DNA of 64,000 bases from Squalus acanthias (lineage: Eukaryota): NCBI GenBank assembly GCA_030390025.1, contig JASTWF010000034.1, positions 2,232,001-2,296,000 of the forward strand, given 5' to 3'. The stretch's first letter is position 1. Every line of letters begins with the position of its first letter. The position numbers and the translations under genes were made by a program. This document shows, in pieces, positions 12,908-46,439 of the stretch. Below the pieces are notes generated by a model that worked only from the letters and a program-made list of their open reading frames with translations, had not been told where the DNA came from and searched no databases.

Positions 12908-12909
12908 TG

Positions 12910-16418: not shown

Positions 16419-19417
16419 TTTTGACAGTTTTCCCGCTCATCTCCATGTTGTGAGAACGAGTTTTGTTAGTTCATGAATTGTTGTGTTTGTTTCAATTTGT
16501 TTGTCCTGAATAAATGACACAGAGTTGGTAACAAAACTAATTTTTTTAATTGTTACTTTACATCTTTTCTGATTTGACTCATTGCAGCTTTGTCCAGCAA
16601 TAGGGGGAGCGGGATGCTTTCAATGATGAGCTTCTTCATCACAGAAGCCATCTTCTCAGTAAGGGGTTAGAATCGGTGTCTTATGAGCCGTTCACGGACG
16701 GCCCTTTCAGTGGCAACATTGTGCGCCTCCCTCCGACGTTGGTGCTGCTGATCCTCCTCTTCATCCTCCTGCTACTCATCCTCCTCCTCCTCTCCCTCTT
16801 CCTCCTCCTCCTCAGGGGGGTGGACCAATCCCTGGTGGCAATGGCTGTGTCCTCATGATTGCAATGTTATGAAGCATGCAGCACACAACAATCAAGAGGG
16901 AGACTCGCTCGGGAGAGTATTGCAGGGCTCCTCCTGAGTGATCTAGAAAGCGGAACCGTTGTTTGAAGACGCCGAACGCCTGCTCTATCATGTTCCTGGT
17001 GGCGCTATGGCTCTCATTGTATTGCAGTTCGGCAGGGCTGTTAGGGTTATAGATCGGTGTCATCAGCCAGGTGCAGAGTGGATAACCCTTGTCTCCGAGG
17101 AGCCATCCACTAGGTTGACACGGTGGTTGGAAGATGTGTGCAACACCGGACTGGCGCAGAATAAAAGCATTGTGGCTGCTGCCAGGATAGCGGGCATTAA
17201 CGGCGAGTATGAGCTGTCTGTGGTCACACACCCTCTGGTCGCGTTTGCCACTCTCTCTCTCTCTGTGCCTCTGCTGCCTCCGAAGGTGAAGCTGGACGAT
17301 GACGCCCCAAGTTAGTGCAGCCCCCATCGAAGCTTCTTAATATCGTTAGAAGGAAGGTGAAATAAAAATGAACCTCCAAATTGGTGCTCAGGACCCAAAA
17401 CTCCTTCGGTGAGCGTCGAATCTCTCCAGACGTCTCTCAACCTGCATCTAACAAAAAATTCGCCGACAATAAACGGCAGGAGGCAACCGCCTATAAATAG
17501 CCCTCCCCCAGCCCCTTCCCAACTTGAAAACATTCCCCATCTACGTGTCGTTCCTAGCGGCAGGGGCTGAGGCAGGGCACGCGACTCAATTTTCAGTCCG
17601 GGGCGCTACCAGGGCATTGCACGCTCGACTGATGTCACGATCTGCAGGCGCAGGAGATCGTGGCGGCAGTGTTTAGTGCCAGCGCAAAATGACTGGTTAA
17701 TTTTGTGAGCGGCGCTAAAATAGCAGCGCTCTGGCGCTATGCTCCTATCGCCCCGTTACCCCCCCCCCCCCCCCGAAGGTGCTCAGCGGAGGTGCTAACC
17801 AACCGATTTTCCCCCCATGATTATCTGTGTTTCTCTCTCTGTCATTCCCCATCCCATCCGCGCTGCTGTCAGCTATTGATTCTGAAGGTGATTTGGTGTT
17901 GCCAAGATTCAAATGTTCAACTCAAGTAAATTTATTGGTGGTGACTCTTTATTTAACGAACATCAGTCTGCTACCGACACTGAACATTAGTATCAGATCA
18001 GAAGAATGCGGTCTTGGTTTCGGAGACTTTTCACCTAATGGCGAAAGGCCATCGACCTGAAACGTTAACTCTGTTTCTCTCTCTCTCTCCACAGATGCTG
18101 CCTGACCCGCTGAGTATTTCCACCATTTTCTGTTTTCATTTCAGATTTCCAGTATCCGCAGTATTTTGCTTTTGATTTCACCTAATGCTCGGTATGGATA
18201 CTCACAGAGTCACAGGAACAAATCCTGGCAGATCACATCCACATCTTTAAATGTCTGAAATATCCGCTAATCATTCAGTTCCAGTCAGTGTCTCCTTTCC
18301 CACCCTCTCCAGTTCTGCATTATTGGCACTGCTTCTGATGGTTAAAGTAGGATTACAAGGATAATTTACATTCTCACAAAACGTTCATTCAGCCAGATTT
18401 CAATACATTTCTTTCTGATCATTGTTTTGAATTTACAATTGGACTCCATGCCCGTCTGTCACAGTTCAGTGGATCTGTCAATGAGATCCAGAGTGATTCT
18501 CTATTGCCTCCTGCTGCACTTCAGGATAAACAATCCCAGCTAATTGCAACTGAAGTACTGATGATAAGAAAATCCTTTGATATTTTCTCGTCTAATATTA
18601 TTTTCTGCACAGGTTGGAAACAACAGGTGAAAAAGTACAAGGATAAATCTCTTCCATTTGTGTTCAGATACTTTACAACAGCATTCGGCGGCACTTTGAC
18701 TGTGGGTTAAGTCGTCTGATTTCGATGCTGATAAATGAATTTAGTGGGACATTACCTGGTCAATCATCACTATTTACTTTAATTCAGAGTCCATTATTTG
18801 CAATGTTACTTGGCAAATCTTCCTTTCAATGAGCTAGATTTTGTGTATTTCAACAAAAATGCAGAAAACTCAATCGTCAAAACATATCTGATAGCCCAGA
18901 TATCTTTATAACTGCAGTGCACTTGCATTTATTATCTTAGCATTGTCGTATTACATCCGTACATTTTACATACAATTGCCTGTAATTATTGCATGCCAAG
19001 GTTGCAGTTTCTGTATTTTGCTGTTGCATTCATTTTCAGTTCTAAATAGAATGGATATTCTAACCAAGAGCAGGAATCCAAGCGGGATTTCCCACTCCCT
19101 AACACAGGGGCACAGAAGCGAACTGCACCGCTCCAAATGCTGACTGATCCCGGGACACGAAGTTTTCCTGAGAGGGTCTGGTCCTTTGTGTCCCTGGTAC
19201 CTCGGGCGGTGCTTTTGTCTGCTTGGCTAAATTTAGATCGATCATTTAATCTCTCCTTGATCCAACATCTGTTACTTTCATATTGTATTTATTCCCATTT
19301 AAGTTATTGATTCCATAATGTTTTCCCGATTATTCTTACAATAAGCCCTGTATTCAGCTCTACAGGTAATAGAATTAGATTATATCATTCAATGTGGGTA
19401 ATGAGTTGCAGATTTCA

Positions 19418-19745
19418 CTCTTTTGGTCCGTGCCTTTTTCCTTTTTTTCTCGCTCTCCCCCCACGGCAGCTGTCTCTGATTCTGCCAGCATTTCACACCT
19501 TACCTGTTGTTTCTCAACCTGTCCCATTACCATTTCGTCTTGCCTTGAGCATCTCTCAATGTCTCTACTCACTAAAGACCATCCCTTTTGTTCTTTTATT
19601 CCTCCCCCCAGCCTCCCCCTTGCATTTTTATCTGTTTATTTCTTGCTCTCTCAGTTCCGACGAAGGGTTTCGACCTGAAACGTTAACTCTCTTTCTCTCT
19701 CCACGGATGTTGCCTGGCCTGCTGAGTTTTTCCAGCTTTTTTCTT
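19418..19745 (+). mobile_element. Penelope-like terminal fragment with hammerhead-like motif
   Basis: AGTT-CCGACGA-AGGGTTTCGACCT-GAAAC-GTTAACT at 19653-19688; pyrimidine-rich flank; same family as 13686-13930. Confidence 0.65.
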
Positions 19746-19747
19746 TT

Positions 19748-22700
19748 GTCTGCACACAGTAATGGCTATTCAACTATGAAAGGCACCTCTGCCAAACACA
19801 TGTCTGCACACAGTAATGGCTATTCAACTATGAAATGCACCTCTGCCAAACACATGTCTGCACACAGTAATGGCTATTCAACTATGATAGGCACATCTGC
19901 CAAACACATGTCTGCACACAGTAATGGCTATTCAACTATGAAAGGCATCTCTGCCAAACACATGTCTGCACACAGTAATGGCTATTCAACTATGATAGGC
20001 ACCTCTGCCAAACACATGGCTGCACACAGTAATGGCTAGTCAACTATGGGAGGCACCTCTGCCAAACACATGGCTGCACACAGCAACGGATATTCAACTA
20101 TTTGTTGACAGTTTTCCCGCTCATCTCCATGTTGTGAGAACGAGTTTTGTTAGTTCATGAATTGTTGTGTTTGTTTCAATTTGTTTGTCCTGAATAAATG
20201 ACACAGAGTTGGTTACACAACTAATTTTTTTAATTGCTACTTTACATCTTTTCTGATTTGACTCATTGCAGCTTTGTCCAGCAATAGGGGGTGCGGGATG
20301 CTTTCAATGATGTGCTTCTTCATCACAGATGCCATCTTCTCAGTAAGGGGTTAGAATCGGTGTCTTATGAGCCGTTCACGGACGGCCCTTTCAGTGGCAA
20401 CATTGTGCACCTCCCTCCCACGTTGGTGCTGCTGATCCTCCTCTTCATCCTCCTGCTACTCATCCTCCTCCGCCTCTCCCTCTTGCTCCTCCTCCTCAGG
20501 TGGTGCAACAATCCCTGGTGGCAATGGTTGGGTCCTCATGATTGCAATGTTATAAAGCATGCAGCACACAACAATCAAGAGGGAGACTCGATTGGGAGAG
20601 TATTGCAGGGCTCCTCCTGAGTGATGTAGAAAGCGGAACCGTTGTTTCAAGACGCCGAACGCTTGCATTATGATGTTCCTGGTGGCGCTATGGCTCTCAT
20701 TGTATTGCAGTTCGGCAGGGGTGTTGGGTTATGGATCGGTGTCATCAGCCAGGTGCAGAGTGGATAACCCTTGTCTCCGAGGAGCCATCCACTAGGTTGA
20801 CACGGTGGTTGGAAGATGTGTGCAACACCGGTCTGGCGCAGAATAAAAGCATTGTGGCTGCTGCCAGGATAGCGGGCATTAATGGCGAGTATGGGCTGTC
20901 TGTGGTCACACACCCTCTGGTCACGTTTGCCACTCTCTCTCTCTCTCTGCGCCTCTGCTGCCTCCGAAGGTGAAGCTGGACGATGACGCCCCAAGTTAGT
21001 GCAGCCCACATCGAAGCTTCTTAATATCGTTAGAAGGAAGGTGAAATAAACATAAACCTCCAAATTGGTGCTCAGGACCCAAAACTCCTTTGGTGAGCGT
21101 CGAATCTCTCCAGACGTCTGTCAACCTGCATGTAACAAAAATTTCGCCGACAAGAAACGGCAGGAGGCAGCCGCCTTTAAATAGCGCTCCCCCAGCCCCT
21201 TCCCGAATTGAAAACATTCCCCATCTACGTGTCGTTCCTAGCGGCAGGGGCTAAGGCAGGGCACGCGACTCAATTCTCAGTCCGGGGCGCTACCAGGGCA
21301 TTGCACGCTCGACTGATGTCACGATCTGCAGGCGCAGGAGATCGTGGCGGCAGTGTTTAGTGCCAGCGCAAAATGACTGGTTAATTTTGTGAGCGGCGCT
21401 AAAATAGCCGCGCTCGGGCGCTAAGCTCCTATCGCCCCGTTACCCCTCCCCCCCCGAAGGTGCTCAGGGGAGCCGCAACCCAACCCACTTTTCCCCCCAT
21501 GATTATCTGTGTTTCTCTCTCTGTCGTTCCCCATCCCATCCGCGCTGCTGTCAGCTATTGATTCTGAAGGTGAATTCGTGTTACCAAGATTCAAATGTTC
21601 AACTCAAGTAAATTTATTGGTGGTGACTCTTTATTGAACGAATTTCAGTCTGCTACCGACACTGAACATTTGTATCAGGTCAGAAGAATGCTGTCTTGGT
21701 TTAGGAGACTTTTCATCTAATGGCGAAAGGCCATCGACCTGAAACGTTAACTCTGTCTCTCTCTCTCTCCACAGATGCTGTCTGACCCGCTGAGTATTTC
21801 CATCATTTTCTGTTTTCATTTCAGATTTCCAGTATCCGCAGTATTTTGCTTTTGTTTTCACCTAATGCTCGGTATGGTTACTTACAGAGTCAAAGGAACA
21901 AATCCTGGCAGATCACATCCACATCTTTAAATGTCTGAAGTATCCGCTAATCATTCAGTTCCAGTCAGTGTCTCCTTTCCCACCCTCTCCAGTTCTGCAT
22001 TATTGGCACTGCTTCTGATGGTTAAAGTAGGATTAAACGGATAAATTACATTCTCACAAAACGTTAATTCAGCCAGATTTCAATACATTTCTTTCTGATC
22101 ATTGTTTTGAATTTACAATTGGATCCCATGCCCGTCTGTCACAGTTCAGTGGATCTCTCAGTGAGACCCAGAGTGATTCTCTATTGCCTCCTGCTGTACT
22201 TCAGGATAAACAATCCCAGCTGATTGTAACTGAAGTACTGAGGATAAGAAAATCCTTTGATACCTTCTCGTCTAATATTCTCTGCACAGGTTGGAAACAA
22301 CAGGTGAAAAAGTACAAGGATAAATCTCTTCCATTTGTGTTCAGATACTTTACAACAGCATTTGGCGGCACTTTGCCTGTGGGTTAAGTCGTCTGATTTC
22401 GATGCTGAAAAATGCATTTAGTGGGACATTACCTGGTCAATCATCACTATTTACTTTAATTCAGAGTCCATTATTTGCAATGTTACTTGGCAAATCTTTC
22501 TTTCCAGAAGCTAGAATTTGTGTATTTCAACAAAAATGCAGAAAACTCAATCTTCAAAACATATCTGACAGCCCAGTTATCTTTATAACTGCAGTGCACT
22601 TGTATTTATTATCTTAGCATTGTCGTATTACATCCGTACATTTTACATACAATTGCCTGTGATTATTGCATGCCAAGGTTGCAGTTTCTGTATTTTGCTG

Positions 22701-23095
22701 TTGCATTCATTTTCAGTTCTAAATAGAATGGATATTCTGACCAAGAGCAGGAATCCAAGCGGGATTTCCACCTCCCGAACACAGGGGCACAGAAGCGAAC
22801 TGCACCGCTCCAAATGCTGACTGAACCCGGGACACGAAGGCTTCCTGTGAGGGTCTGGTCCTTTGTGTCCCTGGTACCTCGGGCGGTGCTTTTGTCTGCT
22901 GGGCTAAGTGTAGATCGATCATTTAATCTCTCCTTGATCAAACATCTGTTACTTTCATATTGTATTTATTCCCATTTCATTTATTGATTCCACAATGTAT
23001 TCCCGATTATTCTTACAATAAGCCCTGTATTCAGCTCCACAGGTAAAAGGATTAGATTATATCATTCAATGTCGGTAATGAGTTGCAGATTTCAC
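19748..23095 (+). repeat. Tandem duplicate (offset about 3.68 kb) of ~16050-19417: 54-bp minisatellite, Harbinger half-element (TIR near 21498) and intron DNA
   Basis: Paired ORFs 17312/20996, 18504/22184 and 18943/22620; both copies share the same transposase deletion. Confidence 0.95.
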
Positions 23096-24137: not shown

Positions 24138-24399
24138 CACAAAGATGGCGGCACCGGGGCGCAGCACAAAGATGGCGGCTCCGCGGCCCCGCACAAAGAT
24201 GGCGGTTCCGGGGCCCCGCAAAAAGATGGCGGATCCGGGGCCCTGTATAAATATGGCGGCTCCGGGGCCCAGCACAAAGATGGCGGCTCTGGGTCCCCGC
24301 CCAAAAATGGCGGCTCCGAGACCCAGCACAAAGATGGCGGCTCTGTTGCCCGGCACAAAGATGGTGGCACTGGGGCCCCGCACAAAGATGACGGCTCTT
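24138..24399 (+). repeat. 27-bp CpG-rich tandem repeat carrying AAGATGGCGGC (YY1 consensus), about 10 units
   Basis: Unit CACAAAGATGGCGGCTCCGGGGCCCCG and variants. Confidence 0.92.
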
Positions 24400-24844
24400 C
24401 AAATATATCGCCGTTCTTTCATCGTCACTAGGTCAAAAGCTTGAAAATCCTTCAGTAACAGTATTGTGGGAGCACCTTCACCACACGGACTGCAGCGGCT
24501 CAATATGAAGGCCCACCACTTTCACATGGGTAACTAGGGATGGGCAAATGATACCAACCTTGACAGCGTCACCCCTAGCCTGAGAACAAACACATCGAAA
24601 TAATAAAATAGGATTAAAATCAATGATTTTACAATTCATTGATTGAAACCAGATGAGGCCTGTGATCAGAGCGGGGCGTCAAGTACGATAAACAAATTGT
24701 CAACACCACTTGGATCTCCAATTCTATCGTTGTATGATTGATACTACTCACACTTTCCCAATTTCCCAATCATTAAAAAAGGTGCTTGATAAAGGATCAC
24801 ATATTACCAACATTGAAGCCCATGGGAATAAAGTGGCAGTGACA

Positions 24845-25720
24845 ACAGTGAGTGGTGGGGGGTGTATCAGTATGTAAGAGAGAATTACATTGAGGGGTGT
24901 ATCAGTGTGTTACAGTGAGGGGTGTGGGGTACATCAGAGTGTTACAATGAGGGGTGCGGGGTTTATCAGCGTGTTGTACGGAGGTGTGTGGGGTATATCA
25001 GAGAGTTACAGTGAGTTGTGTGGTGCATATCACAGTGTTCCCGTGAGGGGTGTGGGGTATATCAGTGTGTTACAGTGAGGGGTGTGGGGTATATCAGTGT
25101 GTTACACTGAGGGGTGTGGGGTTTATCAGCGTGTTGCAGCGAGGAATGTGGGGTATATCAGAGAGTTACAGTGAGGTGTGTGGTGTATATCACCGTGTTA
25201 CCGTGAGTGGTGTGGGGTATATCATAGTGTTACATTGATGGTGTTTGGGGTATATCTGTTTTACTGTGAGGGGTGTGGGGTATATCAGAGAGTTACAGTG
25301 AGGGGTGTGGGGTATATCAGTGTGTTACAGTGAGGGGTGTGGGGTATATCAGTGTTAGTGAGGGGTGTGGGGTACATCAGTGTTACAGTGAGGGGTGTGG
25401 GGTATATCAGTGTGTTACAGTGAGGGGTGTGGGGTATATCAGTGTTAGTGAGGGGTGTGGGGTACATCAGTTTTATAGTGAGGGGTGTGAGGTATATCAG
25501 TGTTACAGTGAGGGGTGTGGGGTATATCATAGTGTTACATTGAGGGGTGTGGGGAATACCAACATGTTGCACTGAGGTGTTTGATGTATATCATAGTGTT
25601 ACCGTGAGTGGTGTGAGGTATATCATAGTGTTACATTGATGGTTTTGCGTATATCAAAGTGTTACAGCGAGATGTGTGTGGTATATTAGAGCATTACAGT
25701 GAGAGGTTTGGAATATGTAA
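24845..25720 (+). repeat. 30-34-bp G-rich minisatellite (GTGTTACAGTGAGGGGTGTGGGGTATATCA)
   Basis: Tandem periodicity; same family at 28505-28905, 33762-34025 and, inverted, 44728-46430. Confidence 0.92.
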
Positions 25721-25734
25721 GAGAGGATTAAAGA

Positions 25735-28500
25735 GCATAAGAACATAAGAAATAGGAGCAGGAGTAGGCCAATTGGCCCCTCATGGCTGATCTGCTCCTA
25801 ACCGCTAATCTACTATCACAGAACCATCGCCTGAACCTAACAGAATTGGACACACGAAATAGGAGCAGGATCAGGCTACACGGCCCCTGTGCCGCTACGC
25901 TACCCACAGGGCCATGACCGATCCGAACCTAGACTCATGTCCAAATTCCTGCCCGCTCCCCGTAACCCTTAATCCCCTTTACTTCTAGGAAACTGTCTAT
26001 TTCTGTTTTAAATTTATGTAATGATGTAGCTTCTACAGCTTTTGGGGCAGCATATTCCATGGACCTACCACCCTCTGAGTGAAGTAGCTCCTTCTCATCT
26101 CAGTTTTGAAAGAGCAGCCCCTTATTCGAAGACTATGCCCCCTAGTTCAAGTTTCACCCATCATCGGGAACATCCTCCCCACATCCACCCGATCCAACCC
26201 CTTCATAATCTTATATGTTTCAATAAGATCGCCTCTAATTCTTCTGATCTCCAATGAGTGGAGTCCCAATCGACCCAACCTCTCCTCATATGTCCACCCC
26301 CTCATCCCCGGGATTAACCGAGGGAACCTGCTTTGTACTGACCCGAGAGCAAGTATGTCTTTTCTGAAGTATGGACACCAAAACTGTATGCAGTATTCCA
26401 GATGCGGTCTCACCAATACCTTGTACAACTGAAGCAATATCTCCCTATTTTTATATTCTATCACCCTAGCAATAAAAGCCAACATTCCAATGGCCTTCTT
26501 TAATCACTTGCTGCAACTGCATACGAACCTTTTGAGATTCGTGCACCAGGACCCCCAGATATCTTTTTACTTCAGTACTTTCCAGTTTCTTGCCATTAAG
26601 ATAATAACTTGCTCGACTATTTTTCCTGCCAAAGTGCATAACCTCACACTTTCCAGTATTGTATTCCATCTGCCAAATCTCTGCCCACTTACTTATCCTG
26701 TCGATGTCCCCTTGCAGGTATTTTATGTCCTCCTCACTCACTACTTTCCCTCCCATCTTAGTATCATCTGCAAACTTTGATATGTTACACTCGGCCCCTC
26801 CTCCATATCGTTAATATAGATTGTAAAGAGTTGGGGACCCAGCACTGACCCCTGCGGAACACCACTAGTTACTGATTGCCAGTCTGAGAATGAACCATTT
26901 ATCCCAACTCTCTGCCTTCTGTTAGATAGCCAATCCTCTATCCATGCCAGAATATTACCCCCAATCCTGTGATTTTTTACCTTAAGCAATAATCTTTTGT
27001 GTGGCACTTTGTCAAATGCCTTTTGGAAGTCTAAATACACCACATCCACTGGTTCCCCTTTATTCACCCTGTATGTTCAATCCTCAAAGAACTCCAGCAA
27101 ATTTGTCAAACATGACTTCCCCTTCATAAAACCATGCTGACTTTGTCCTATTAAATTATGATTATCCAAATGTCCCGTTACTGTCTCCTTAATAATGGAC
27201 TCTAAAATTTTACCTACCACAGATGTTAGGCTAACCGGTCTATAGTTTCCAGCCTTCTGTCTACTGTCCTTTTTAAATAAGGGTGTTACATTAGCAGTTT
27301 TCCAGTCTGCCGGGATCTTTGCTGAGTCCAGGGAGTTTGGGAAAATGATTACCAATGCATCCACAATCCCTACCGCCACTTCCCTCAAGACCCTAGGATG
27401 TAAGCCATCAGGCCCAGGTTATTTATCCGCCTTGAGTACTATTATTTTACCGAGTACCATTTCCTTAGTGATTTTGATCGTGTTTAGCTCCTCCCCCCCA
27501 TAGCCCCCTGTTTGTCCAGTGTTGGGATATTCTTAGTGTCCTCTACTGTAAAGACTGATACAAAATATTCATTGTGTATTTGCCATCTCCATATTTCCCA
27601 CCAGTGATATCCCGGTCTCATCCTCCAAGGGACCAACATTTACTTTAGCCACCCTTTTTCATTTTATATAACTATAAAAACTCTTACTTTCTGTTTTTAT
27701 ATTTTTTGCTAATTTACTTTCATAATCTATCTTCCCTTTCTTAATCAATCTTTTTGTTATTTTTTGCTGTCTTTTAAAGTTTCCCCAATCCTCTATACTC
27801 CCACTAGATTTGGCCTTGTTTTTATCCGAATACTATCCTTAATTTCTTTACTTAGCCACGGATGACTGTTTTTTCTTTTACACCCTTTTCTTCTCAGTGG
27901 AATATATATTTTTTGGAAGTTGTAAAATAACTCCTTAAATGTACACCACTGATCATGTATCGTCTTACCCTTTAATCTATTTTCCCAATCCACTCTACTC
28001 AATTCCACTCGCATACCTTCATAGTCGCCTTTATTGAAGCTTAGCACGCTTGTTTGAGATCCAACCTTCTCACCCTCTAATTGAATATGGAATTCAACCA
28101 TGTTATGGTTACTCATTCCAAGGGGATTCCTTACTCGGACATTTTTAATTAATCCTGTCTCGTTGCACAGGACCAGATCTAAGGTTACTTGCCCCCTGGT
28201 CGGTTCAGTTACATACTGCTCAAGAAACCCATCCCTAATACACTCAATGAACTCATCCTCAAGGCAGCCCTGCCCAATTTGATTTGTCCAATTAATATGA
28301 TAGTTAAAATCCCCCATAATTATATATGTTCCCTTATTACAAGCCTCAACTATTTCCTGATTGATACTCCGTCCAACAGAGTTGCAACTGTTCGGAGGCC
28401 TATAGACTACGCCCACTAGTGTTTTTTCCCCATTATTATTCCTTAACTCCACCCAAACAGTTTCATTATCCTGATCTTTTGATCCAACATCATTTTTCTG
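25735..28500 (-). mobile_element. 5'-truncated CR1 LINE ORF2 (endonuclease + RT)
   Basis: ORFs 28452-27793 (YRPPNS, GDFN), 27388-27077, 27067-26741 ([10 protein letters not shown]) and 26485-26147; CATAAGAACATAAGAA tail at ~25735. Confidence 0.92.
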
Positions 28501-28504
28501 TAAT

Positions 28505-28905
28505 AGAGTGAAGGGGTATATCAGAGTGGTACAGTAAGGGATGTGTGGTGTATATCAGAGTGTTATAGTCAGGGGAGTGGGTTTACATCAAAGTGCTACA
28601 GTGAGGGGTGTGGGGTACATCCGGTTTATACAATGAGGTGTGTGGTGCATAACAGAGTGCTATAGTGAGGGGTGCGGGGTACATCACAGTAATACAATGA
28701 GCGGTGTTGTGTATAACAGAGTGTTACAGTGAGAGATGTGGTGTATAACAGAGTATTACAATCAGGGCTGTGGGTTTATGTGAGTGTTTTACATTGATGG
28801 GTGTCGGGTATATCAGAGTGTTACAGCGAGGGGTATGGAGTATATCAGAGAGTGTTACAGTGAGGGGCTTGGAGTAAAACGGTGTGCTGCAATGAGAGGT
28901 TTAAT
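28505..28905 (+). repeat. Degenerate 30-34-bp G-rich minisatellite
   Basis: GAGTGTTACAGTGAGGGGTGTGGGGTA variants. Confidence 0.8.
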
Positions 28906-28911
28906 CACAGA

Positions 28912-29319
28912 AGAATGTAAGAAATAGGAGCAGGAGTAGGCCATTCGGCCCCTTGAGCCTGCTCCGCCATTCAATGAGATCATGGCTGATTTTCTCCCTC
29001 AATTCCATTCACCGGCCTTATCTCGATATCCCTTGATGCCCTTACTAGTCAGAAATCTATCGACTTCTGTTTTGAATATTCCCAATGACTGAATCTCCAC
29101 AGCCCTCTGGGGTAGAGAATTCGAAAGATTCACCACCCTGTGAAGAAATGTCTTTATTAGAGTTAGATATATTTCTTAAGGCTAAGGGGATGAAGGGATA
29201 TGGGGAGAAAGCAGGGACAGGGTACTGAATTTGGATGATCAGCCATGATTGCATTGAATGGCGGAGCAGGCTCGAGGGGCCGAAAGGCCTACTCCTGCTC
29301 AAATCTTCTATGTTTCTAT
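28912..29319. mobile_element. Two CR1 3' ends (minus 28912-29155; plus 29158-29319), the target of the Harbinger
   Basis: Terminal hairpins AGGAGCAGGAGTAGGCCATTCGGCCC and GGAGCAGGCTCGAGGGGCCGAAAGGCCTACTCCTGCTC; the minus element resumes at 33352. Confidence 0.85.
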
Positions 29320-29489
29320 GGGGCAAAAATTCAGTTGGTTGCGCCTCCCGTTAGCGCCTTAAGAGGGCGCTAATGGGACGCAAAGCCGCTAGCGCCCGGG
29401 CGCAGCGATGTTTGCGCCGCTCGGGAACTTAACTAAACATTGTGCGGCGGCGTTAAACTTTACCGCTGCGACCACCTGCGCGCGCAGAT

Positions 29490-29640
29490 TGTGACGTCAT
29501 TCCATGGTGCAACGCCCTTGTGGCGCCCCGGAGCAGAAATTGAGTGGCGCCCCCTGCCTTACCGCCTGGCGCATCCAACGACCGGAAGACTGGAACGCTA
29601 TCAATCGCTGTGGGGCTGGGGGGGCGCTATTTAAAGGGGG
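29490..29640 (+). promoter_or_regulatory. Putative transposase promoter
   Basis: Perfect CRE TGACGTCA at 29492-29499 and TATTTAAA at 29628-29635. The degenerate copies keep a TATTTA(T/A)A at the equivalent place (~17490, ~21180, minus strand). Confidence 0.5.
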
Positions 29641-29807
29641 CCTCTTCCTGTCTTTTTCTGTGGTTGACATTTTTGCACCACTCGTTCTGAGAGAGAAAGA
29701 GAGACTTCTGCATTGAGTCAACGCTTTGTGAGGTAGTTTTGCCTACTGATCCTAACTTCGCTGGTACTTTGGTTGCTGTCCTTCATAACTTTGCTTGCAA
29801 AGAGACT

Positions 29808-30968
29808 ATGGGGGCTGCACTGAATGTGGGCGTTGTCCTGCTCCAGCTGAATCGGAGGACACATAGACGCAGAGAGAGAGTGGCAATGATGGCCAGACGG
29901 AGGAGGGCCAACTGGCGTCTGTACAGGAGAGCTTACCCTCCCAGGGTATATCCTGAACAGCTCTCCTACATTCATTTGTCTGAGGAGTTGTGTTTGCAAT
30001 GGCTGCGATTCAGCAAGGAGGTGGTCACTGAGCTCTGCCACCTGCTGCAGCCAGATCTGCAGCCTCAACTGAGGTCCAGGACGTCTCTGACGGTAGCAGT
30101 GAAGGTCACAGTGGCTCTCAAGTTCTATGCTACTGGCTCATTTCAAGCTGCTGCTGGGGACCTCCCCAATATCTCCCAGTTCGCGGTGCATTGCTGCATC
30201 CGGCAGGTCACAAATGCCCTCTTTAAAAGGAGACGAGAGTTCATCTCTTTCCCCATGACCCCAGACAAGCAACGTGACCGCGCTCTGGGCTTTGCGAGGA
30301 TAGCGGGCTTCCCCATGGTGCAGGGCGCCATTGACTGCACGCATGTGGCTTTGCGTGCTCCACATGAGAATGCCGAGGATTTCCGGAACAGAAAGGGGTT
30401 CCATTCCTTGAATGTTCAGTTGGTCTGTGACCACAGACAGCTGATACTCGCTGTCAATGCCCACTATCCTGGCAGCTGCCACGATGCTTTCATCCTGCGC
30501 CAGACTACTGTGGCAGAACTTTTCGAGGCACCGCATCAGCCAGTTGGTTGGCTTCTCGGGGACAAGGGGTATCCATTGAGCACCTGGCTGATGACACCGC
30601 TCCGTACGCCCAACACCCCTGCTGAGCTGCGGTACAACGAGAGCCATCAAGCTACCAGGAACATCATTGAGCGCACAATCGGCGTGCTGAAGCAACGGTT
30701 CCGCTGTCTCGACCATTCAGGAGGAGCCCTGCAGTACTCGCCTGAGCGAGTATCCAACTTCGTAGTTGTGTGCTGCATGTTGCATAACATGGCAATCGTC
30801 AGGACCCAGCCAATGCCACCAGGCCTTGGAGCACCACCAGAGGAGGAGGAGGAAGAGGAGGAAGAGGACGAGGAGGATGATCATCAGCAGCACCAAGGCG
30901 GGAGGGCGGCCCACAATGGTGAAACTGCAAGGGCCGTCCGTCAACGGCTGATAGCAAGCCGCTTCTAG
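29808..30968 (+). CDS. Harbinger DDE transposase (HARBI1-like), 386 aa
   Basis: Intact ORF from ATG 29808; HTH region (ALKFYATGS..ISQFAV); GAIDCTH, YPGSCHD, LLGDKGY, IERTIGVLKQRFRCL, CCMLHN; acidic tail. Confidence 0.95.
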   Translation: MGAALNVGVVLLQLNRRTHRRRERVAMMARRRRANWRLYRRAYPPRVYPEQLSYIHLSEELCLQWLRFSKEVVTELCHLLQPDLQPQLRSRTSLTVAVKVTVALKFYATGSFQAAAGDLPNISQFAVHCCIRQVTNALFKRRREFISFPMTPDKQRDRALGFARIAGFPMVQGAIDCTHVALRAPHENAEDFRNRKGFHSLNVQLVCDHRQLILAVNAHYPGSCHDAFILRQTTVAELFEAPHQPVGWLLGDKGYPLSTWLMTPLRTPNTPAELRYNESHQATRNIIERTIGVLKQRFRCLDHSGGALQYSPERVSNFVVVCCMLHNMAIVRTQPMPPGLGAPPEEEEEEEEEDEEDDHQQHQGGRAAHNGETARAVRQRLIASRF

Positions 30969-31280
30969 GGCCTCTGCTGTGGAAATGGCTTCTGCCATTG
31001 CTAACAACATCAATGAACCCAGCACGCAACCCCTAAGCCGGCCAAGGCACCAATGATTCCAAACACCAAACATGTATATTTTGAATACAAAAACGTATTT
31101 ATTTTACAAACTCTGTGTGTGTCATTTCCTCATGACAAACTCATAGAAATAAACACAAAAAAACAGTCATTAACATAACTGGTTCTCACAACCTGGAGAT
31201 AATGTCCAAAACACTAAACAAAAGTTGGACCACGAACCTCGGCCTTTAATAAAAAAATGACCAGCATTTTGTCACACCTC

Positions 31281-32191
31281 CTACTTTTTGCCCTTCGAGG
31301 GTGATCTCCTTCCCTTGCACACTTCCCCCCTTCTAACCCTACTGCTCCTCCGTAATGGGACCTCAGTGGCTGCAGCAAGGCTGGTGGAAGGCTGCAGATT
31401 GTCAGACACTGACACTGCAGATGCCCCTGAAGGACGGCCTCGACCAGTTCTGGGCCTGGAGGGCCCGGCTGCAGACTGCACCAACTCTGCATGGGCGGCA
31501 GCAGTCTGTCCTACAGGCGGTGGCAAGTGCAGTGGAGAAGTGACAGTGTTGGCAGCAGGAATGCTGTCATCGTGAGAGAGGAAAGCAACTCCCTGCTCGC
31601 CCGACACACTGGCACTCCCACGGGGCAGCACTTCAGCATCCGGAGCAATCTGCTGGAGCACAGATTGCTGGCCTGCTGCGGCGCGGTGGGAGCCCCGGGG
31701 ACCTGTGAACGAACCATCGAGGTTGGCAGCAGTCAGTGCTCGCGTGGCCTCAATCTTTAGTGTGGCATCCGCCTGTGCTACAGCGAAGTGCTCCACACTC
31801 CTTGCCAGTGACTCAATGCATTCGGGCACCCTTCCCACTGCACCCATGAGCTCAGTGTGCATGCCCACCGCCTGCGTGTTCATTTCTGCGATCAGCCGCT
31901 CCTCCTCTGCGTCCATTGCAGTAGGAGTCGCTGGCATACTCTCCCTCTGGGGAGAAGGCCCCCGTTCTTCCCTACCCCCATGGCGTTGCTGCAGCCCGCT
32001 GGGTCCTGGAGCTTCACCCTCATCAGACCCTTCCCCCCTGCTCCCCTCCAGGGAAGGCGTGTTCCCAGTGTGGGCATGGGCTTCCTCGGGAGAGGGTGGC
32101 ACTGATGCTCCGGCTTCCTCTTCCTCCTCGGCTGCAGCTTCACTCCCACTGGCAGCTTCAGGGCCCGTCTCCTCAGCTGGTGAATCACCAT
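31281..32191 (-). CDS. Harbinger Myb/SANT-like protein, exon 3 (spliced product 436 aa)
   Basis: Acceptor CTGCTTTCAG|AT joins in frame with ORF 31281-32102; acidic low-complexity region, helical segment, basic NLS-like end (RRSPSKGKK). Confidence 0.85.
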
Positions 32192-32350
32192 CTGAAAGCA
32201 GGGAGGTACAAGAGTGACTTTAGCGTGTGGACAAGGTGGCAGTAAGGGAGGAATAAGTGCAGCGAGTTAGCAAGTTGGATTGAAAGTGTCAAAGGCTGGT
32301 GTTGTGAGGGACAAGTGGAAGGACAGAGGACAAAAAGGTGATGACCTTAC

Positions 32351-32513
32351 CATTGCTGTCAAGAACGGGGTCGGCGTCTCCAGTGGCGACGGGCCCGATC
32401 ACCCGGCTTGCCACAATCCTGTGGACGCGCTCCTCAAGATCGCTGAGGGGTTGCAGCTGAGGCCGCCCTCCACCTGTCCGTTGCTGCTGTCTCCTATTAT
32501 GCGCCAGCTTGGC
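32351..32513 (-). CDS. Harbinger Myb/SANT-like protein, exon 2
   Basis: Acceptor TTTTCTTGCAG|GCC; AKLAHNRRQQQRTGGG..LSDLEERV; donor G|GTAAGG, phase 1. Confidence 0.88.
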
Positions 32514-32743
32514 CTGCAAGAAAAAGGACAGCGTCTGAGTAAATATACAGCCATGGTCTTGCCTGATGTGCCTCCCAAAGGTGAATAGCCCTTACTGTAT
32601 GCAAAGTGTGGAATGTGTGTGTGTGTTTCATGAAAGGGCCATAGGTGTTGGATGAGTGTTGTGCATTGGGGTTTTAAGACCCTCTGGCCATAGAGTGAGG
32701 TTGAGATGGAGGGATGGAGAGGTATTGAGAAAAAGCCACTCAC

Positions 32744-32980
32744 CCGGACGACCCGAGTGAGGTCGTTGAACTTTTTGCGGCATTGAACATGGGTCCTGGG
32801 CACCATGCTCCTGGAGGAGACGCTCTGAGCCACCTCCCTCCACACTCTTCTGTACTCTCGTGGCAAAGGCCTCCTGCCACTCTCAGGGAAGATTATAGAT
32901 CTTCTGCGCTCCACCGCGCCAACCAGAGCATCCAAGGCCCGCTCGGTGAGGCGCTGAGCTCGTTCTCTCACCCTCTCCAT
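32744..32980 (-). CDS. Harbinger Myb/SANT-like DNA-binding protein, exon 1
   Basis: MERVRERAQRLTERALDALVGAVERRRSIIF..WREVAQSV..RTHVQCRKKFNDLTRVVR; donor CGG|GTGAGT, phase 0. Confidence 0.9.
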
Positions 32981-33351
32981 CCTTGGCAGCAAAATGGATT
33001 CACAGGTCTCTCCAGGCCGAGATTCAAGGCTGCAATGAGCAGGGTGTGGCTGGGGAGCAAGTTGGCCCCCCTCGCTTTAAGAACTGGCCGGCGCCAGTGT
33101 GTCTGTGTTCCCTCGCTAACTGGCAGCACCTGCGCTGTGCTCGCGCGCTGAGTTAGCGCCTCACTGCTCGGCCTTTGCGCCTTAAGACAGGTGTGCAGCG
33201 CCTGATTTAGCGCTCCACTCACCTCCCGGGGCGGTAAAAGTGCAGTTTCCAATCAGTGGCGATAATTAGCACCAGGCACTAATTTTTGCGTCCAGACGAT
33301 ATTTGCGCCCCAAACGGGGCGCGACCTAATTATTCCCCCTATGTTTCTATG

Positions 33352-33760
33352 CATCTCATCTCAGTCCTGAAAGGCCTACCCTTTATCATAAGTCTGTGGC
33401 CCCTGGTTCTAGACTCCCCAGCCAAGGGAAACATTCTCCCAGCATCCAACCTATCAAGCCCAGTAATAATTTTTAATGCTTCAATAAGATCCCCACTCAT
33501 TCTTCTGATTTAAAGAGAATACAGGCCTAGTTCACTCAATCTCTTCTCATATGACTGTCCCGCCTTCCCAGGAATCAATCTCGTGAACCTTCGTTGCACT
33601 CCCTCTATGGCAAGTATATCCTTCCTTAGGTAAGGAGACCAAAATTGTACACAGTACCCAGATGTGGTATCACCAAGGCCTATATAAAGGGAGTAAGACT
33701 TCTTTACTCCTGTACTCAAATCCTCTTGTAATGAAGGCCAGCACACCATTTGCCTTCCTT
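33352..33760 (-). mobile_element. CR1 RT C-terminal fragment, continuation of 28912-29155
   Basis: YCVQFWSPYLRKDILAIEGVQRRFTRLIPG. Confidence 0.85.
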
Positions 33761-33761
33761 G

Positions 33762-34215
33762 GGGTATGTAAGAGAGTGTTATAATCAGGAGTGTGGGGTA
33801 TATCAGAGTATACAGTGAGGGGTGTGGTTTAGATCAGAGTGTTATAGTGAGGGGTGTGGGGTATATCAGATTATTATAGTGATTGGTGTGGAGTACATCA
33901 GAGTGTTACAGTGAGTGGTGTGGGGTATATCAGCGTATTGCAGTGAGGTGTGTGAGTTATTTCAGAGTGTCACAGGTATGGGTGTGAGGTATATCAGTGG
34001 GTTACAGTGAGGGGTGTGGGGTACAGCCCCACCCAACATTCCAAGGGCAGGGACAGTGGGTTAGATAAAGAATAAAGCTCCCTCGACACTGCCCCACCAA
34101 ACAGTCCCAGGGCAGGTACAGTGGGATAGATAGAGTAAAGCTCCCTCTACACTGCCCCACCAAACACTCCCAGGGCAGGTACAGCACGGGTTAGGTACAG
34201 GTAAAGTTCCCTCCA
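33762..34215. repeat. 30-34-bp minisatellite abutting inverted 67-bp minisatellite units
   Basis: G-rich units run to 34025; then CAAACACTCCCAGGGCAGGTACAGCACGGGTTAG units. Confidence 0.8.
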
Positions 34216-34485
34216 ATTTGGTTCATCAACACAACCAACTCTGATACATCATGTGTTCAATGCAGCGTACAGCTCCCTTGACACTACGCAATGAAGCACA
34301 ACCAGCTCAGTTACAGCATGGGGTCAATACAGATTAAAGATCCCTCTACATGTAAGTGTTAAACACTCCCGGGTGAGGTACGGGCAAGGTTTATCTGCGA
34401 GTTAAGCTCCGCTCAACTTGCCACATCAAAGGCCGAGCCTGATGGCAGATGTTGAAGAGCTCCCAGTATCTGGTTAGACTCTCAC

Positions 34486-35005
34486 CTGGGCAGAATCCTG
34501 GACTGATGGGATTCTCAGTAAAGTTCCTCACCTTTCCAATCATTGTTGAAGCTTCCCGTTTTATCCCGTCTCCGACACGGGGATCTCGATCCCACCAGAT
34601 CTGCTCTGTGAAACCAGCGACATTTCTCCAGTCCCAGTCAGTGAGGCGATGATTCGACTTCTCTCTCTCCACCTTCCTGAGATATTGCTCACTCCCAGAG
34701 ACTGTCAATAGAAAAATGATTCATATTAATCCCAGGTCCATTATCTGGAATACAGTGGGACTGTTTTTGTGACTGGGATTGTATCTAATTTAATTATATT
34801 TGCAACTAATGTGTGTTTGAATTACTTACATTAATATTAAATTGTCCCTTTCAGCCCTTTGCCCTGTTTATTGGGACTAAACTCACTGCCAGTGTCAGCT
34901 GTCACTCCAGCTCCTCCCACACTGACATCCCACTGATGGGCCGTAACCAGGGGCGGGGCTCTGTCTCCAGGTGACACCACACAGGAGCAAGGAGCCAATC
35001 AATCA
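34486..35005 (-). other. Putative promoter plus two 5' exons of an unidentified gene (copy A)
   Basis: CCAAT at 34995-34999; GC box at 34950-34959; donor GTGAGT at 34886; acceptor TTTTTCTATTGACAG before 34701; donor CAG|GTGAGA at 34485. Confidence 0.4.
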
Positions 35006-35064
35006 AAGAGCAGCCTGGAAAAATGTTAAAGCGGCCAAGCCCCTCCCAATCCCCCCGGGGCAGG

Positions 35065-38000
35065 TACATAACGAACATACGAATTAGGAGCAGGAGTCGG
35101 CCATTCGGTCCCTCAAGCCTGTTCCGCCATTCAATAAGATCATGGCTGATCTGATTACTCCACATTCCCGTCCAACCCCCGATAACCTTTCACCCCCTTG
35201 CTTACCAAGAATCTATCTACGTCCGCCTTAAAAATATTCAAAGACTCTGCTTCCACCGCCCTCTGAGGAATAGAGTTCCAAAGACTCACGACCCTCTGAG
35301 AAAAAACATTCTCCTCATCTCTATCGAAAATAGGCGCTCCATTATCTTTAAACAGTGACCCCTCATTCTAGATTCTCCCACAAGAGGAAACATCCTCTCC
35401 GCATCCACCCTGTCAAGACCCCTCAGGATCTTATAGGTTTCAATCAAGTCACCTCTTACTCTTCTAAACTCCAGTGGATACAAGCCTAGCCTGCCCAACC
35501 TTTCCTCATAAGACAACCCGCCCATTCCAGGTATTAGTCTAGTAAACCTTCTCTGAACTGCTTCCAACGCATTTACATCCTTCCTTAGATAAGGAGACCA
35601 ATACTGTACTCAGTACTCCAGATGTGGTCTCACCAATGCCCTCTATAACTGAAGCATAAACTCCCTACTTTTGTATTCAATTCCCCTCGCAATAAACGTT
35701 AACATTCTATTAGCTGTCCTAATTACTCGCAGTACCTGCATACTAACCTTTTGTGATTCATGCACTAGGACACCCAGAACCCTCTGAATCTCAAAGCTCT
35801 GCAATCTCTCACTATTTAGATAATATGCTTATTTTTTATTTTTCCTGCCAAAATGCACAATTGCACATTTTCACAAATTATACTCTATTTGCCAGATCTT
35901 TGCCCAGTCACTTAACCTATTCAGATACCTTTCTAGCCACCATATGTCCTCTTCACAATTTACTTTCCTACCTATCTTTTTGTCATAAGCAAATTTAGCA
36001 ACCATACCTTCGGTCCCTTCATCCAAGACATTTATATAAATTGTAAAAAGTTGAGGCCCCAGCATTATCCCTGTGGCACACTACACATTACATTTGCTAA
36101 GCAGAAAATGACCCATTTATGCCTACACTCTGTTTCCGGTTAGCTAGCCAATCTTCTATCCATGCCAATATGTTACCCCCTACACCATGAGCTTTTATTT
36201 TCCGAAATAACCTTTGATGTGGCACCTTATCAAATGCCTTCTGGAATTCTAAGTACAGTACATCCACCGGTTCCCCTTTATCCACAGCACATGTTACTTC
36301 CTCAAAGAACTCCAATAAATTGGTTAAACATGATTTCCCTTTCACAAAACCATGCTGACTCTGCCTGATTACCTTGAACTTTTACAAGTGCCCTGCTATA
36401 ACGTCTTTAATAATAGTTTCTAGCATCTTCCCTAAGACAGGTGTTAAGCTAACTGGCCTGTAGTTTCCTGCTTTCTGTCTCCCTCCCTTTTTGAATAAAG
36501 GAGTTACAATCGCTATTTTCTAATCTAATGGAACCTTCCCCGAATCTAGGGAATTTTGGAAAATTAAAACCAACGCATCAACTATCTCACTAGCTACTTC
36601 TTTTAAGACCCTAGGATGAAGTCCATCAGGACTCGGGGACTTGTCAGCCCGCATCTCCAACAGTTTCCTCATTACTACTTCCCTGGTGATTGTAATTTTC
36701 CTGACTTCCTCCCTCCCTTCCATTTCCTGATTTACAGCTGTTTCTGGAATGTTACTTGTATCCTCTATAGTGAAGACCGATGCAAAATACCTGTTCAATT
36801 CAACTGCCATCTCCTTATTTTCCATTATTAATTCCCCAGACTCACTTTTTATAGCACCAACGCTCCCTTTGTGAACTCTTTTCTTTTTCGAATATCGATA
36901 GAAACTCTTACTATCTGTTTTTATATTTCTAGCTAGCTTTCTCTCGTACTCTAATTTTTCTCTCCTTATTAATCTTTTAGTAATTCGTTGCTGTTTGTTT
37001 ATATTCTGTCCAATCTTCTGACCTGCCACCCATCTTTGCACAATTATATGCTTTATCTTTAAGTTTGATACTATCTTTAACTTTTTTAGTTAACCACGGA
37101 TGGTGGGTCCTCCCCTTGGTATTTTCCTTTCTCGTTGGAATGGATCTATTCTGTGTATTCTGAAATATCCCATTAAATGTCTGCCACTGCAGCTCTATTG
37201 ACCTATCGCTTACTCTAGTTTGCCAGTTCACTTTAGCTAGCTCTGCTATCATGCCCTCATAATTGCCCTTATTTAAGTTAAAAAAACTAGTCTTGGACCA
37301 ACTCTTCTCTCCCTCAAACTGAATGTAACATTCAATCATATTATGATCGCTGCGACCTAGGGGCACCTTCACTATGTGGTCATTAATTAATCTTATCTTG
37401 TTTCACAATACCAGGTCTACTATAGCCTGCTCTCTGGTTGGCTCCAGAACGTGTTCTAAGAAACTGTCCCAAAAACATTCTATGAACTCCTCATCTAGGC
37501 AACCTTTGCCCATCTGATTTTTCCATCTATATGTAGATTAAAATCCCCCATGATTATTTCCGTACCTTTCTGACAAGCTCCCATTATTTCTTCCTTGATA
37601 CTCCATCCTAACGTGTGGTTACTGTTAGGGGGCCTGTACACCACTTCCACAAGTGACTTCTTGCCTTCATCATTTCTCATCTCTACCCAAACCGCTTCTG
37701 CATCCTGGTTTCCTGAACTTTAGTCATCCCTCTATTGCGCTAATACCATTATTAATTTACAGAGCCACCCCTCCACTTTTTCCTAAATATCATGTACCCT
37801 TCAATATTCAGGTCCCAATGTTTGTCATCCTGCAGCCATGTCTCTGTAATAGCTATCAGATTGTACTTATTTAATTCTATTTACGCCATCAGTTCATCTG
37901 TTTTGTTTCGAATGCTTCGTGCATTCAGATACAGAGCCTTTAGTTTTGTCCTTTTGTTATTTTTGTAACCTTTAGCCTTATCTGTTGATTTACTCTTAGA

Positions 38001-38312
38001 TTTGTACTCTCTATCCCTTCCCGTCTCGGTCTGCTTATCATTTCCCATGTTAATACCTTTCTCTCTTGTCTTGTTTCTACTCTTTGATTTACCACATCTT
38101 CCCAGATTTGATCCCTGGCCCCCAATATTTAGTTGAAAGCCCTCTCTACCGCCCTAGTTATATGACTCGCCAGAACACTGGTCCCAGCACGGTTCAGGTG
38201 AAGACCAACCCAACGGTACAGTTCCCACTTTCCCCAGTACTGGTGCTAGTGCCCCAGGAAGCGAAACCAATTTCTCCCATACCAGTCTTTGAGCTACGCA
38301 TTCATCTCTCTA
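35065..38312 (-). mobile_element. CR1 LINE, ORF1 end through ORF2 to 3' tail, decayed
   Basis: WGKWELYRWVGLHLN (ORF1 end) at ~38240; [42 protein letters not shown]. Confidence 0.92.
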
Positions 38313-38314
38313 AT

Positions 38315-40543
38315 TTGATGGAACAGGGTAGAGGGAGCTATACTTTGTATCTAAACCGTGCTGTATCTGCCCTGGGAGTGTTCGATAGGTCTTTGTAGAG
38401 GGAGCTTTACTCTGTACCTAACCCGTGCACTACCTGCCCTGCGAGTATTTAATGCTACAGTGATGAGGGAGCTTACTCTTTCAAAACAGTGCTGTACCTG
38501 CCCTGGGAGTGTTTGATGGGACGGTGTAGAGGGAGCTTTACTCTGTATCTAACCCTGTGCTGTACCTGCCATGGTACTGTTTGATGGGACAGTGCAGAGG
38601 GAGTTTTACGCTGTATCTAACCCGTGCTGTACCTGCCCTCGGAATATTTGAAGGATCTTTGTAGAGGAAGCTTTACTCTGTATGTAACCCGTGCTGTATC
38701 TTCCTGGGAATATTTGAAGGGACAGTGCAGAGGAAGCTTTACTTTGCATCAATCCCTGTGCTGTACCTGCCCTGAGAGTGTTCGATAAGTCTTTGTAGAG
38801 GGAGCTTTACTCTGTACCTAACCCGTGCACTACCTGCCCTGCGAGTATGTAATGCTACAGTGATGAGGGATTTTTACTCTTTCAAAACAGTGCTGTACCT
38901 GCCCTGGGAGTGTTTGATCGGACAGTGTAGATGCAGCTTTACTCTGTATCTAACCCGTGCTGTACCTGCCCTGGGAGTGTTTGATGTGACAGTGTAGAGG
39001 GAGCTTTACTCTGTATCTAACCCCGTGCTGTACCAGCCATGGGGCTTTTTGATGGGACAGTGTAGAGGGAGCTTTACTCTGTGTCTAACCGGTGCTGTAC
39101 CTGCCCTGGCAGTTTTTGATACGACAGTGTAAAGGGAGCTTTACTCTGTACCTAATCCATGCATTACTTGCCGAGAGTGTTTGAGGGGACAGTGTAGAGG
39201 GAGCTTTATTCGGTATCTAACACGGGCTGTACCTGCCTGAGAAAGTTTGATGCGACAGTTTAGAGGAAGCTTTACTCTGTATCTAACCCGTGCTGTACCT
39301 CCCCTGGGAGTGTTTGATGGGACAGTGTAGAGGGAGCTTTACTCTGTATCTAACCCGTGCTGCACCTGCCCTGGGAGTGTTTGATAGGACAGTGTCGAGG
39401 GAGCTTTACTCTGTATCTAACCCCGTGCACGACCTGCCCTGCGAGTGCTTGATGAGGCAGTGTAGAGGGAGCTTTACTCTGTACCTAACCCGTGCACGAC
39501 GTGCCCTGCGACTGTTTGATGGGGCAGTGTAGAGGGAGCTATACTCTGCATTTTACCTGTTCTGTACCTGCCCTGGGAGTGTTTCATGGGACAGTGCAGA
39601 GGGATCTTTACTCTGTAACTAACCTATGCACTAACTTCTCAGCGAGTGTTTGATGGGACAGTTTAGATGGTGCTTTATTCTATATCTAACCATTGCAGTA
39701 CCTGCCCTGGGAGTGTATGATGCGATTCTGCAGAGGGATCTTTACTCTGCATCTTACCTGTGCTGTACCAGTCCTGGGAGTGTTTGATGGGACAGTGTAT
39801 AGGTAGATTTACTCTGCATCTTACCTGTGCTGTACCTAAACTCTGAGTGTTTGATGGGAAAGTATAGAGGGAACTTTACTCTGTAACTAACCTGTGCTGC
39901 ACCTGCCCCGGGACTGTTTGTTGGGACAGTGTAGAGGGAGCTCTAATCTGTATCTAACCATTGTTGTGTCTGCCCTTGGTGTGTTTGATAGCACAATGTA
40001 TAGTGAGCTATACTCTGTATCTAACCCGTGCTGTTGCAGACCTGGGAGTGTTTGATGTGATAGTATATATGGAGCATTACTCAGTATCTAACCCGTGCTG
40101 TACCTGCCCTGGGAGTGTTTCATGGGGCAGTCTAGAGGGAGCTTTACTCTGTATTTAATCCATGCTGTACCTGACCTGGGAGTGTTTGATGCAAAAGTGT
40201 AGAGGCAGCTTTACTCTGCATCTTACCGTGCAGTACCTGGCCTGGGAGTGTTTGATGGGATTGTGCAGAGGGCTCTTTACTATGTATCTAATCCTTGCAG
40301 TACCTGCCCTGGGAGTGTTTGATGGGATTGTGCAGAGGGCTCTTTACTATGTATCTAATCCTTGCAGTACCTTCCCTGGGAGTGCTTGACGGCCAGTGTA
40401 TTGTGCGCTTTACTCTATATCTAACCCATGCTGTACCTCACCTGCGAGTGTTTGATGGGACCGTGCAGAGGGATCTTTACTAAGTATCTAACAAATGCTG
40501 TACCTGCACTGGGACTGTTTGATGGGACAGTGTAGTGGGAGCC
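38315..40543 (+). repeat. 67/68-bp minisatellite (ACCCGTGCTGTACCTGCCCTGGGAGTGTTTGATGGGACAGTGTAGAGGGAGCTTTACTCTGTATCTA)
   Basis: Tandem periodicity with divergent units. Confidence 0.95.
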
Positions 40544-44605: not shown

Positions 44606-44727
44606 CATCTCTGGCTCTATAGAATCATAGAATGGATACAGTACAGAAGGAGGCCTTACGGCCCGTCGAGCCCGTGCCGGCTTTCTACAAGAGCACTTCA
44701 GCAAGTCCCACTTATCCAATCCCCTTT

Positions 44728-46430: not shown

Positions 46431-46439
46431 ACTATGCTT

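Follow-up and report, generated by a model that had tools for sequence, protein, structure and literature searches.

The window analysed here, a stretch of 64,000 nucleotides from the shark Squalus acanthias (NCBI GenBank assembly GCA_030390025.1, contig JASTWF010000034.1, positions 2,232,001 to 2,296,000 of the forward strand), contains at positions 29320–33339 a 4020-bp transposable element of the two-gene Harbinger type, in which a transposase gene and a Myb/SANT gene converge. An original prediction, made from the letters of the window, had described a complete and possibly natively competent element. Its completeness was confirmed here by the ends, the target-site duplication and both genes. 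The element lies in the tail of a CR1-type fragment that itself interrupts a long interspersed nuclear element (LINE), and the window carries a second, nearly identical copy of it. The features of the locus are the following, in window positions:

28924–29149, minus strand: 3' piece of the outer LINE, which resumes at 33355–33757 (alignment and contigs of run X2)
29162–29316, plus strand: 3' fragment of the host CR1-type element whose tail received the insertion, 90.5% identical to 3605–3761 (alignment)
29317–29319, no strand: left target-site duplication, TAT, within the 8-bp repeat tail of the CR1-type fragment
29320–29331, plus strand: left terminal inverted repeat of 12 bp, beginning GGG, matching the right end at 10 of 12 positions
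29332–29807, plus strand: left subterminal region, likely the putative transposase promoter and 5' untranslated region, with a CpG observed/expected ratio of 0.97 against 0.41 for the window; two decayed relatives have a similar region
29628–29635, plus strand: TATA-like motif in the left subterminal region (from the sequence)
29808–30968, plus strand: transposase gene, 386 aa, DDE_Tnp_4, with D176, D226, D252 and E288 (open frame, Pfam and homologue columns)
30969–31280, no strand: region common to the 3' sides of the convergent genes, with AATAAA at 31148 and 31248 (plus) and at 31103–31098 (minus)
31281–32191, minus strand: Myb exon 3, 911 nt including the stop codon, its acceptor confirmed in RNA contigs
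32192–32350, minus strand: Myb intron 2, 159 nt, GT-AG, skipped in runs X12 and X16 and contiguous in a 750-bp contig of DNA run X11
32351–32513, minus strand: Myb exon 2, 163 nt (gene model, RNA contigs and homology)
32514–32743, minus strand: predicted Myb intron 1, 230 nt, GT-AG (homology over the junction; in one contig, acceptor 32513 connects with a donor further upstream)
32744–32980, minus strand: first coding exon of the Myb/SANT gene, 237 nt, with Myb_DNA-bind_5 (gene model and Pfam)
33217–33222, minus strand: consensus splice donor, likely of an upstream non-coding Myb exon (joint 32512/33222 in one X16 contig, depth 7, and donor sequence)
33328–33339, minus strand: right terminal inverted repeat, matching the left end at 10 of 12 positions
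33340–33342, no strand: right target-site duplication, TAT (from the sequence)
24138–39659, plus strand: block repeated at about 48481–64000 with 25 differences in 15523 bp, so placed that it bears both element copies (self-search)
53662–57680, plus strand: second full copy of the element, with 7 differences and identical flanks, its transposase stop codon TAG changed to TGG at 55309 to give 398 aa

The ends proposed by the original prediction and the TAT duplication on both sides of them were both confirmed; the naive chance of 10 matches in 12 together with a 3-bp repeat at two fixed points is 6e-7. Once the element and one TAT are taken out, the CR1-type tail regains its 8-bp period, and an empty tail of the same kind is present in the window at 3758–3773. 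A 2-bp AT duplication, of the ISL2EU type, was ruled out, as it disrupts that period. Contigs of public sequencing runs (labelled X1, X2, X9, X11, X12 and X16) served as comparison data, and those of X2 connect 29136 with 33357 across the outer LINE interruption. Another junction, found in X11, also appears to lie in a CR1-type tail, recognised by its likeness to the window flank. At this single site the target reads CTATG, with TAT as the duplicated part. Over the 15 bp of the empty site, agreement with the published target of Harbinger3_DR reaches 6 of 15 positions on either strand, and 4 of 6 in one half-site. The AATAAA signals previously noted on both strands between the genes were recovered as well. 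A candidate 70-nt GT-AG intron lies at 29733–29802, in the 5' untranslated region of the transposase gene; no such joint is among the joints listed.

The transposase frame runs without an internal stop and matches Pfam DDE_Tnp_4 (E=6e-41). Its catalytic motifs begin at aa 173, 225, 251 and 287, and the acidic residues they supply (D176, D226/D252 and E288) sit in conserved columns of 120 homologues, in agreement with the uninterrupted catalytic protein previously described. Shark and ray proteins make up the top 73 of the 120 matches listed. The best of them, P0001 and P0002 of Pristiophorus japonicus, both named 'putative nuclease HARBI1', align with 90% of the transposase at 67% identity and with all of it at 61%, respectively; no listed match exceeds 67%, and thus none is a close family member. 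A search by sequence for a relative of solved structure gave 0 matches, and Foldseek returned only weak DDE/integrase-fold matches, none at E<=0.001.

The Myb/SANT gene had been proposed to splice into one frame of 436 aa. Exons of 237, 163 and 911 nt separated by GT-AG introns do give 436 aa with a single terminal stop, and Myb_DNA-bind_5 is found in the first coding exon (E=2e-9). Support for the two introns differs in kind. A joint omitting exactly 32192–32350 (CT..AC ends on the plus strand) was present in X12 (organism A, depth 211) and X16 (organism B, depth 52), that is, in 2 of 2 RNA-type runs and 0 of 2 DNA runs (X9 and X11), and an ungapped DNA contig spans the intron; the 32351/32191 junction is therefore seen in RNA. 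These two runs were taken as RNA solely by their spliced joint, no listed run with words of the stretch being on record as RNA. The spliced contigs speak for the family, since they carry majority letters and not those of the window copy. The same joint is not among the 15 of 89 joints listed for the run set with X1 and X2, and the intron 1 junction, 32744/32513, is not among the joints listed in either run set. Intron 1 is supported by homology, because the alignment of the spliced product with the database protein P0009 extends over 112 aa through the junction, whereas the unspliced frame aligns over only 78 aa. Acceptor 32513 was also found once joined to donor 33222, which suggests that the Myb gene has a further, non-coding exon upstream. 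Exon 1 as a query gave one match among 494 candidates, and exon 3 gave no homologue among 7999. P0009 itself has 523 aa and contains Myb_DNA-bind_5 and DDE_Tnp_4 together, as either a fused annotation or a head-to-tail Harbinger would.

The family to which the element belongs is very abundant in shark-type runs, and is transcribed and spliced. Part of the stretch is contained in 20 of the 23 runs listed, and at least half of its words in 12 of 23; roughly half of them or more occur under seven organism labels, some of which may be metagenome labels, and none in two runs of label E. Contigs falling on 29000–33700, a stretch that includes the LINE flanks, number 64,565 in X1 and 97,742 in X2, with 30 of 30 bins covered, and 8,485 X9 contigs fall on 29285–33372. 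Coverage is 30 of 30 bins in three runs of the X1/X2 set, in which a further run, X21 (raw RNA reads from another organism), gave 0 matching reads, and 29–30 of 30 in X9, X11, X12 and X16; depth is summed over contigs, and copy number is not derivable from it. Thousands of variant contigs point to many dispersed copies, deletion derivatives among them: the element ends receive more cover, one joint skips 29657–33204 in the manner of an interior deletion, and the left end forms junctions with other flanks in the set of X9, X11, X12 and X16, five or six of them among the joints listed. A metagenome scan for the left end gave 0 matches.

Self-search of the window revealed the second full copy at 53662–57680, 99.8% identical to the first and absent from the original prediction. 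Both of its flanks are identical to those of the first copy, the tandem period being 24.3 kb, and the two copies differ at 7 of 4020 positions, like the rest of the block (25 of 15523, 0.16%). Because identical flanks in a duplicated block surround it, the second copy is a duplicate of one insertion, and a recent jump to 53662–57680 was ruled out. The loss of its stop codon extends the transposase by 12 residues, and decayed relatives keep the stop at that place. A block divergence of 0.16% resembles the published diversity of one shark (0.002; PMC10587355), so the repeat may be either a real duplication or two haplotypes placed in tandem by the assembly. The block begins within a GC-rich minisatellite, and its second copy is preceded by a piece resembling a short interspersed nuclear element. 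Of the dispersed copies for which the original prediction had recommended a search, the family supplies many in the runs, whereas the 64-kb window holds no near-identical copy at an independent site, its single near-identical copy having the same flanks.

Measured against the majority letter of the family, the window copy differs at 45 (X12), 55 (X16), 40 (X9) and 64 (X11) of 4088 places, largely the same places in each run. This amounts to a divergence of 0.9–1.6%, and the introns and ends show the same background of about 1%. A decayed relative in the window has the family letter at the two of two places checked by eye. From 80 listed rows (40 of 302 in one set and 40 of 78 in the other), we kept the 36 places that lie within the element and are near-fixed in deep DNA runs, leaving out 7 flank rows and the variable rows (5 in the 302-row set and 14 in the 78-row set) and counting 18 repeats once. 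Twenty-four of these places are coding, 12 in each gene. The amino acid changes at 16 of them, 9 in the transposase and 7 in the Myb gene, and stays the same at the other 8. Under drift, replacements would be expected at 75% (P=0.23 for 16 or fewer of 24), and under an omega of 0.3 at 47% (P=0.045 for 16 or more of 24). The mix thus appears to fit drift, and to fit an omega of 0.3 only marginally.

Youth, and the native competence suggested by the original prediction, are not supported by this divergence, by these drift-like changes, or by a sole near-identical copy that is a block duplicate. Nor is the intactness of the copy remarkable, as had been suggested. At this divergence, each frame has a probability of 0.52–0.67 of staying free of stops, and open frames are therefore unsurprising in a large family; moreover, intact and expressed two-gene vertebrate Harbingers are already known (PMC8437027). 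The element looks fresher than the surrounding LINEs because it inserted into them later.

We consider it about two-thirds probable that the element is an old full-length copy that has drifted without selection for millions of generations, is probably impaired and was later copied with its block. The departures from the majority would then be private decay, and we infer both this and the age from sequence comparison. With the mutation rate of the epaulette shark, 7e-10 per generation (PMC10587355), a divergence of 0.9–1.6% would correspond to about 1–2e7 generations, and with an assumed rate of 5e-9 to about 2–3e6, as orders of magnitude only. Several changes occur at conserved sites in the helical N-terminal part of the transposase, through which it reportedly binds its Myb partner in order to be imported into the nucleus (PMC9392472, citing Sinzelle 2008), and the differences of the transposase from the majority cluster in aa 6–120. 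K105 is found in 2 of 109 homologues, 82 of which have N; W36 is found in 0 of 53; and P120, located in a turn between predicted helices 112–118 and 124–140, in 0 of 112. P49 is rare as well (2 of 68, with R in 49), its family letter not being in the listed rows. Such changes have probably impaired the function of the copy.

Other observations weigh against an old, drifting and impaired copy. The coding tally draws on only 40 of 302 and 40 of 78 rows, which makes the test weak, and the Myb gene alone (7 of 12) gives P=0.32 against an omega of 0.3. Uniform decay does not explain why 11 of the 12 listed transposase changes fall within the first 358 bp of the gene. All four acidic residues are present, the catalytic part shows at most about 4 differences in contig pieces of about 660 bp, the predicted transposase fold is intact, with a mean confidence score (pLDDT) of 83.8, and both element ends are CpG-rich. 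The runs richest in the words of the copy contain 0.73–0.74 of them, as about 40 unshared changes predict, and the family majority probably comes from runs without this copy, maybe of related species. A young subfamily confined to the host is therefore possible, still competent, whose differences would have arisen in active ancestors with a fast-changing transposase N-terminus. Complete ends, spliced family transcripts, a nearly unchanged catalytic part and the clustering of the changes would all agree with it. However, 16 of the 24 listed coding changes alter amino acids, at the P=0.045 given above for an omega of 0.3, K105, W36 and P120 are rare or absent among homologues, the background of about 1% extends to introns and ends, the duplicate lost its transposase stop codon, and no independent insertion with these letters was seen in the window or the run contigs. 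We regard this subfamily as the strongest of the alternatives, with perhaps a one-in-five claim on the data.

The clustering also admits a mosaic, in which a copy otherwise close to the majority would have had the 5' end of its transposase gene replaced, through conversion or template switching, by that of an older copy. Its total divergence would then overstate the age of the insertion, and the N-terminus would be damaged. Contig pieces in 29807–30181 show 7/165, 8/190 and 4/173 differences against about 1% elsewhere, and the family supplies many donors. Yet no donor was seen in the contigs examined, and the remaining element is still about 1% divergent, which makes the insertion old regardless; this rather improbable scenario adjusts the reading of an old, drifting copy more than it replaces it. 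Over 29808–30165, the differences from the majority are three to four times denser than in the rest of the element. That the two genes form a domesticated pair of the HARBI1/NAIF1/MSANTD type under host selection is hardly credible: both frames are open and the best protein matches are named 'putative nuclease HARBI1', but domesticated genes of this kind are single-copy, lack mobile ends and are under purifying selection, whereas this element lies inside a LINE tail with its two ends and the target duplication preserved, is one member of a high-copy family and gives no sign of purifying selection, and the HARBI1 names, borne by dozens of different proteins of one species, appear to be automatic labels on transposon copies.

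For the old, drifting copy that we favour, the sequence of events would begin with a cut-and-paste Harbinger-type element inserting into the repeat tail of the CR1 fragment. The insertion would then have been copied together with its 24-kb block, and the copy would have drifted since. The related systems require both proteins; the Myb partner attaches to the ends and recruits the transposase, and a 3-bp site is duplicated inside a longer preferred target (PMC2836001, PMC10288884, PMC9392472). By analogy with Harbinger3_DR and with Ping/Pong, the Myb/SANT protein, once spliced, would both bind the 12-bp ends and bring the transposase, contacted at its N-terminus, into the nucleus. The DDE core would excise the element and reinsert it at a partly palindromic site, of which 3 bp would be duplicated.

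The element belongs to the PIF/Harbinger superfamily in the broad sense (PHIS), having a DDE_Tnp_4 transposase with the acidic triad, a separate Myb/SANT gene, short terminal inverted repeats with a 3-bp duplication, and dispersed copies. Its closest likeness by description, rather than by sequence alignment, is Harbinger3_DR of zebrafish, which is NuwaI-2_DRer (PMC4482050, supplementary file 1): both measure about 4.0–4.2 kb and have 12-bp ends, DDE_Tnp_4 and Myb_DNA-bind_5 proteins and a 3-bp duplication, the shark proteins having 386 and 436 aa against 343 and 221. NuwaI ends usually begin with GGG (PMC4482050), and the 12-bp ends found here lie within that group's range of 12–61 bp and accompany, as in that group, a DDE gene and a Myb/SANT gene. 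The reported subgroup duplications are TWA, CWG and TNA (PMC4482050). At this one site the TAT differs from the CWG of NuwaI, including Harbinger3_DR, and from the TWA of the narrowly defined PIF/Harbinger group (Han et al. 2015), which shares the DDE and Myb/SANT gene pair; relative to NuwaII (CTNAG, duplicating TNA), the outer C and G match and the third duplicated base differs. The string 'TAT' is absent from supplementary file 1 of PMC4482050.

The element can also be likened, again by description only, to Harbinger-Snek of sea kraits, a high-copy two-gene vertebrate Harbinger with intact copies, RNA over both genes and deletion derivatives; 269 intact copies are reported in Laticauda colubrina and one intact expressed copy in L. 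laticaudata, and it was acquired horizontally by the snake (PMC8437027). Harbinger expression is also reported in teleosts (PMC9179366) and in a newt (PMC5741667). Tourist/Harbinger elements are the commonest DNA transposons of a reef shark (PMC12498223). No published account of the present family was found in the literature, Repbase and Dfam lying outside that search.

Tandem repeats and LINE fragments abound in the window. Two internally deleted relatives of the element, of about 75% identity and with a similar left end preceded by CAT, lie on the minus strand at about 16420–17818 and 20095–21500, within an older tandem repeat of 95% identity (16064–19418 and 19747–23095), and end in a 54-bp satellite. 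A related Myb gene fragment occupies 15235–15632 on the plus strand, containing the first coding exon and part of intron 1 (68% amino acid identity). The 54-bp tandem unit at 15981–16418 and 19747–20101 resembles 32548–32603 in intron 1 of the element, a region at which contigs of X1, X2 and X9 step back 54 bases; judging from this resemblance, the interior of a transposon of this family may have given rise to the satellite. Several long minisatellite arrays, their units about 30–70 bp in size, lie at 8871–10121, 10816–12909, 24845–25716, 44726–46436 and 62654–64000.

In conclusion, the element is an elasmobranch Harbinger well resolved over its full length, one of its introns being supported by RNA at the family level, and addresses a gap named in a survey that reports no Harbinger in the elephant shark and suggests other cartilaginous fish for checking (PMC9179366). 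It also illustrates that, where a genome mutates slowly, open frames by themselves are no sign of a young copy. It is a less likely prospect still than the young subfamily, though not as improbable as the mosaic, that this abundant, spliced and expressed family, whose TAT target is non-canonical, continues to move in living sharks and that this copy or a close sister moves on its native proteins. Harbinger3_DR is reported to have been mobilised only as a reconstruction (PMC2836001, PMC3016246). Native mobility, if true, would therefore mean an animal Harbinger working without reconstruction, in a lineage with a null survey result, and would offer a ready two-protein, target-selective transposon for work on mechanism and tools.

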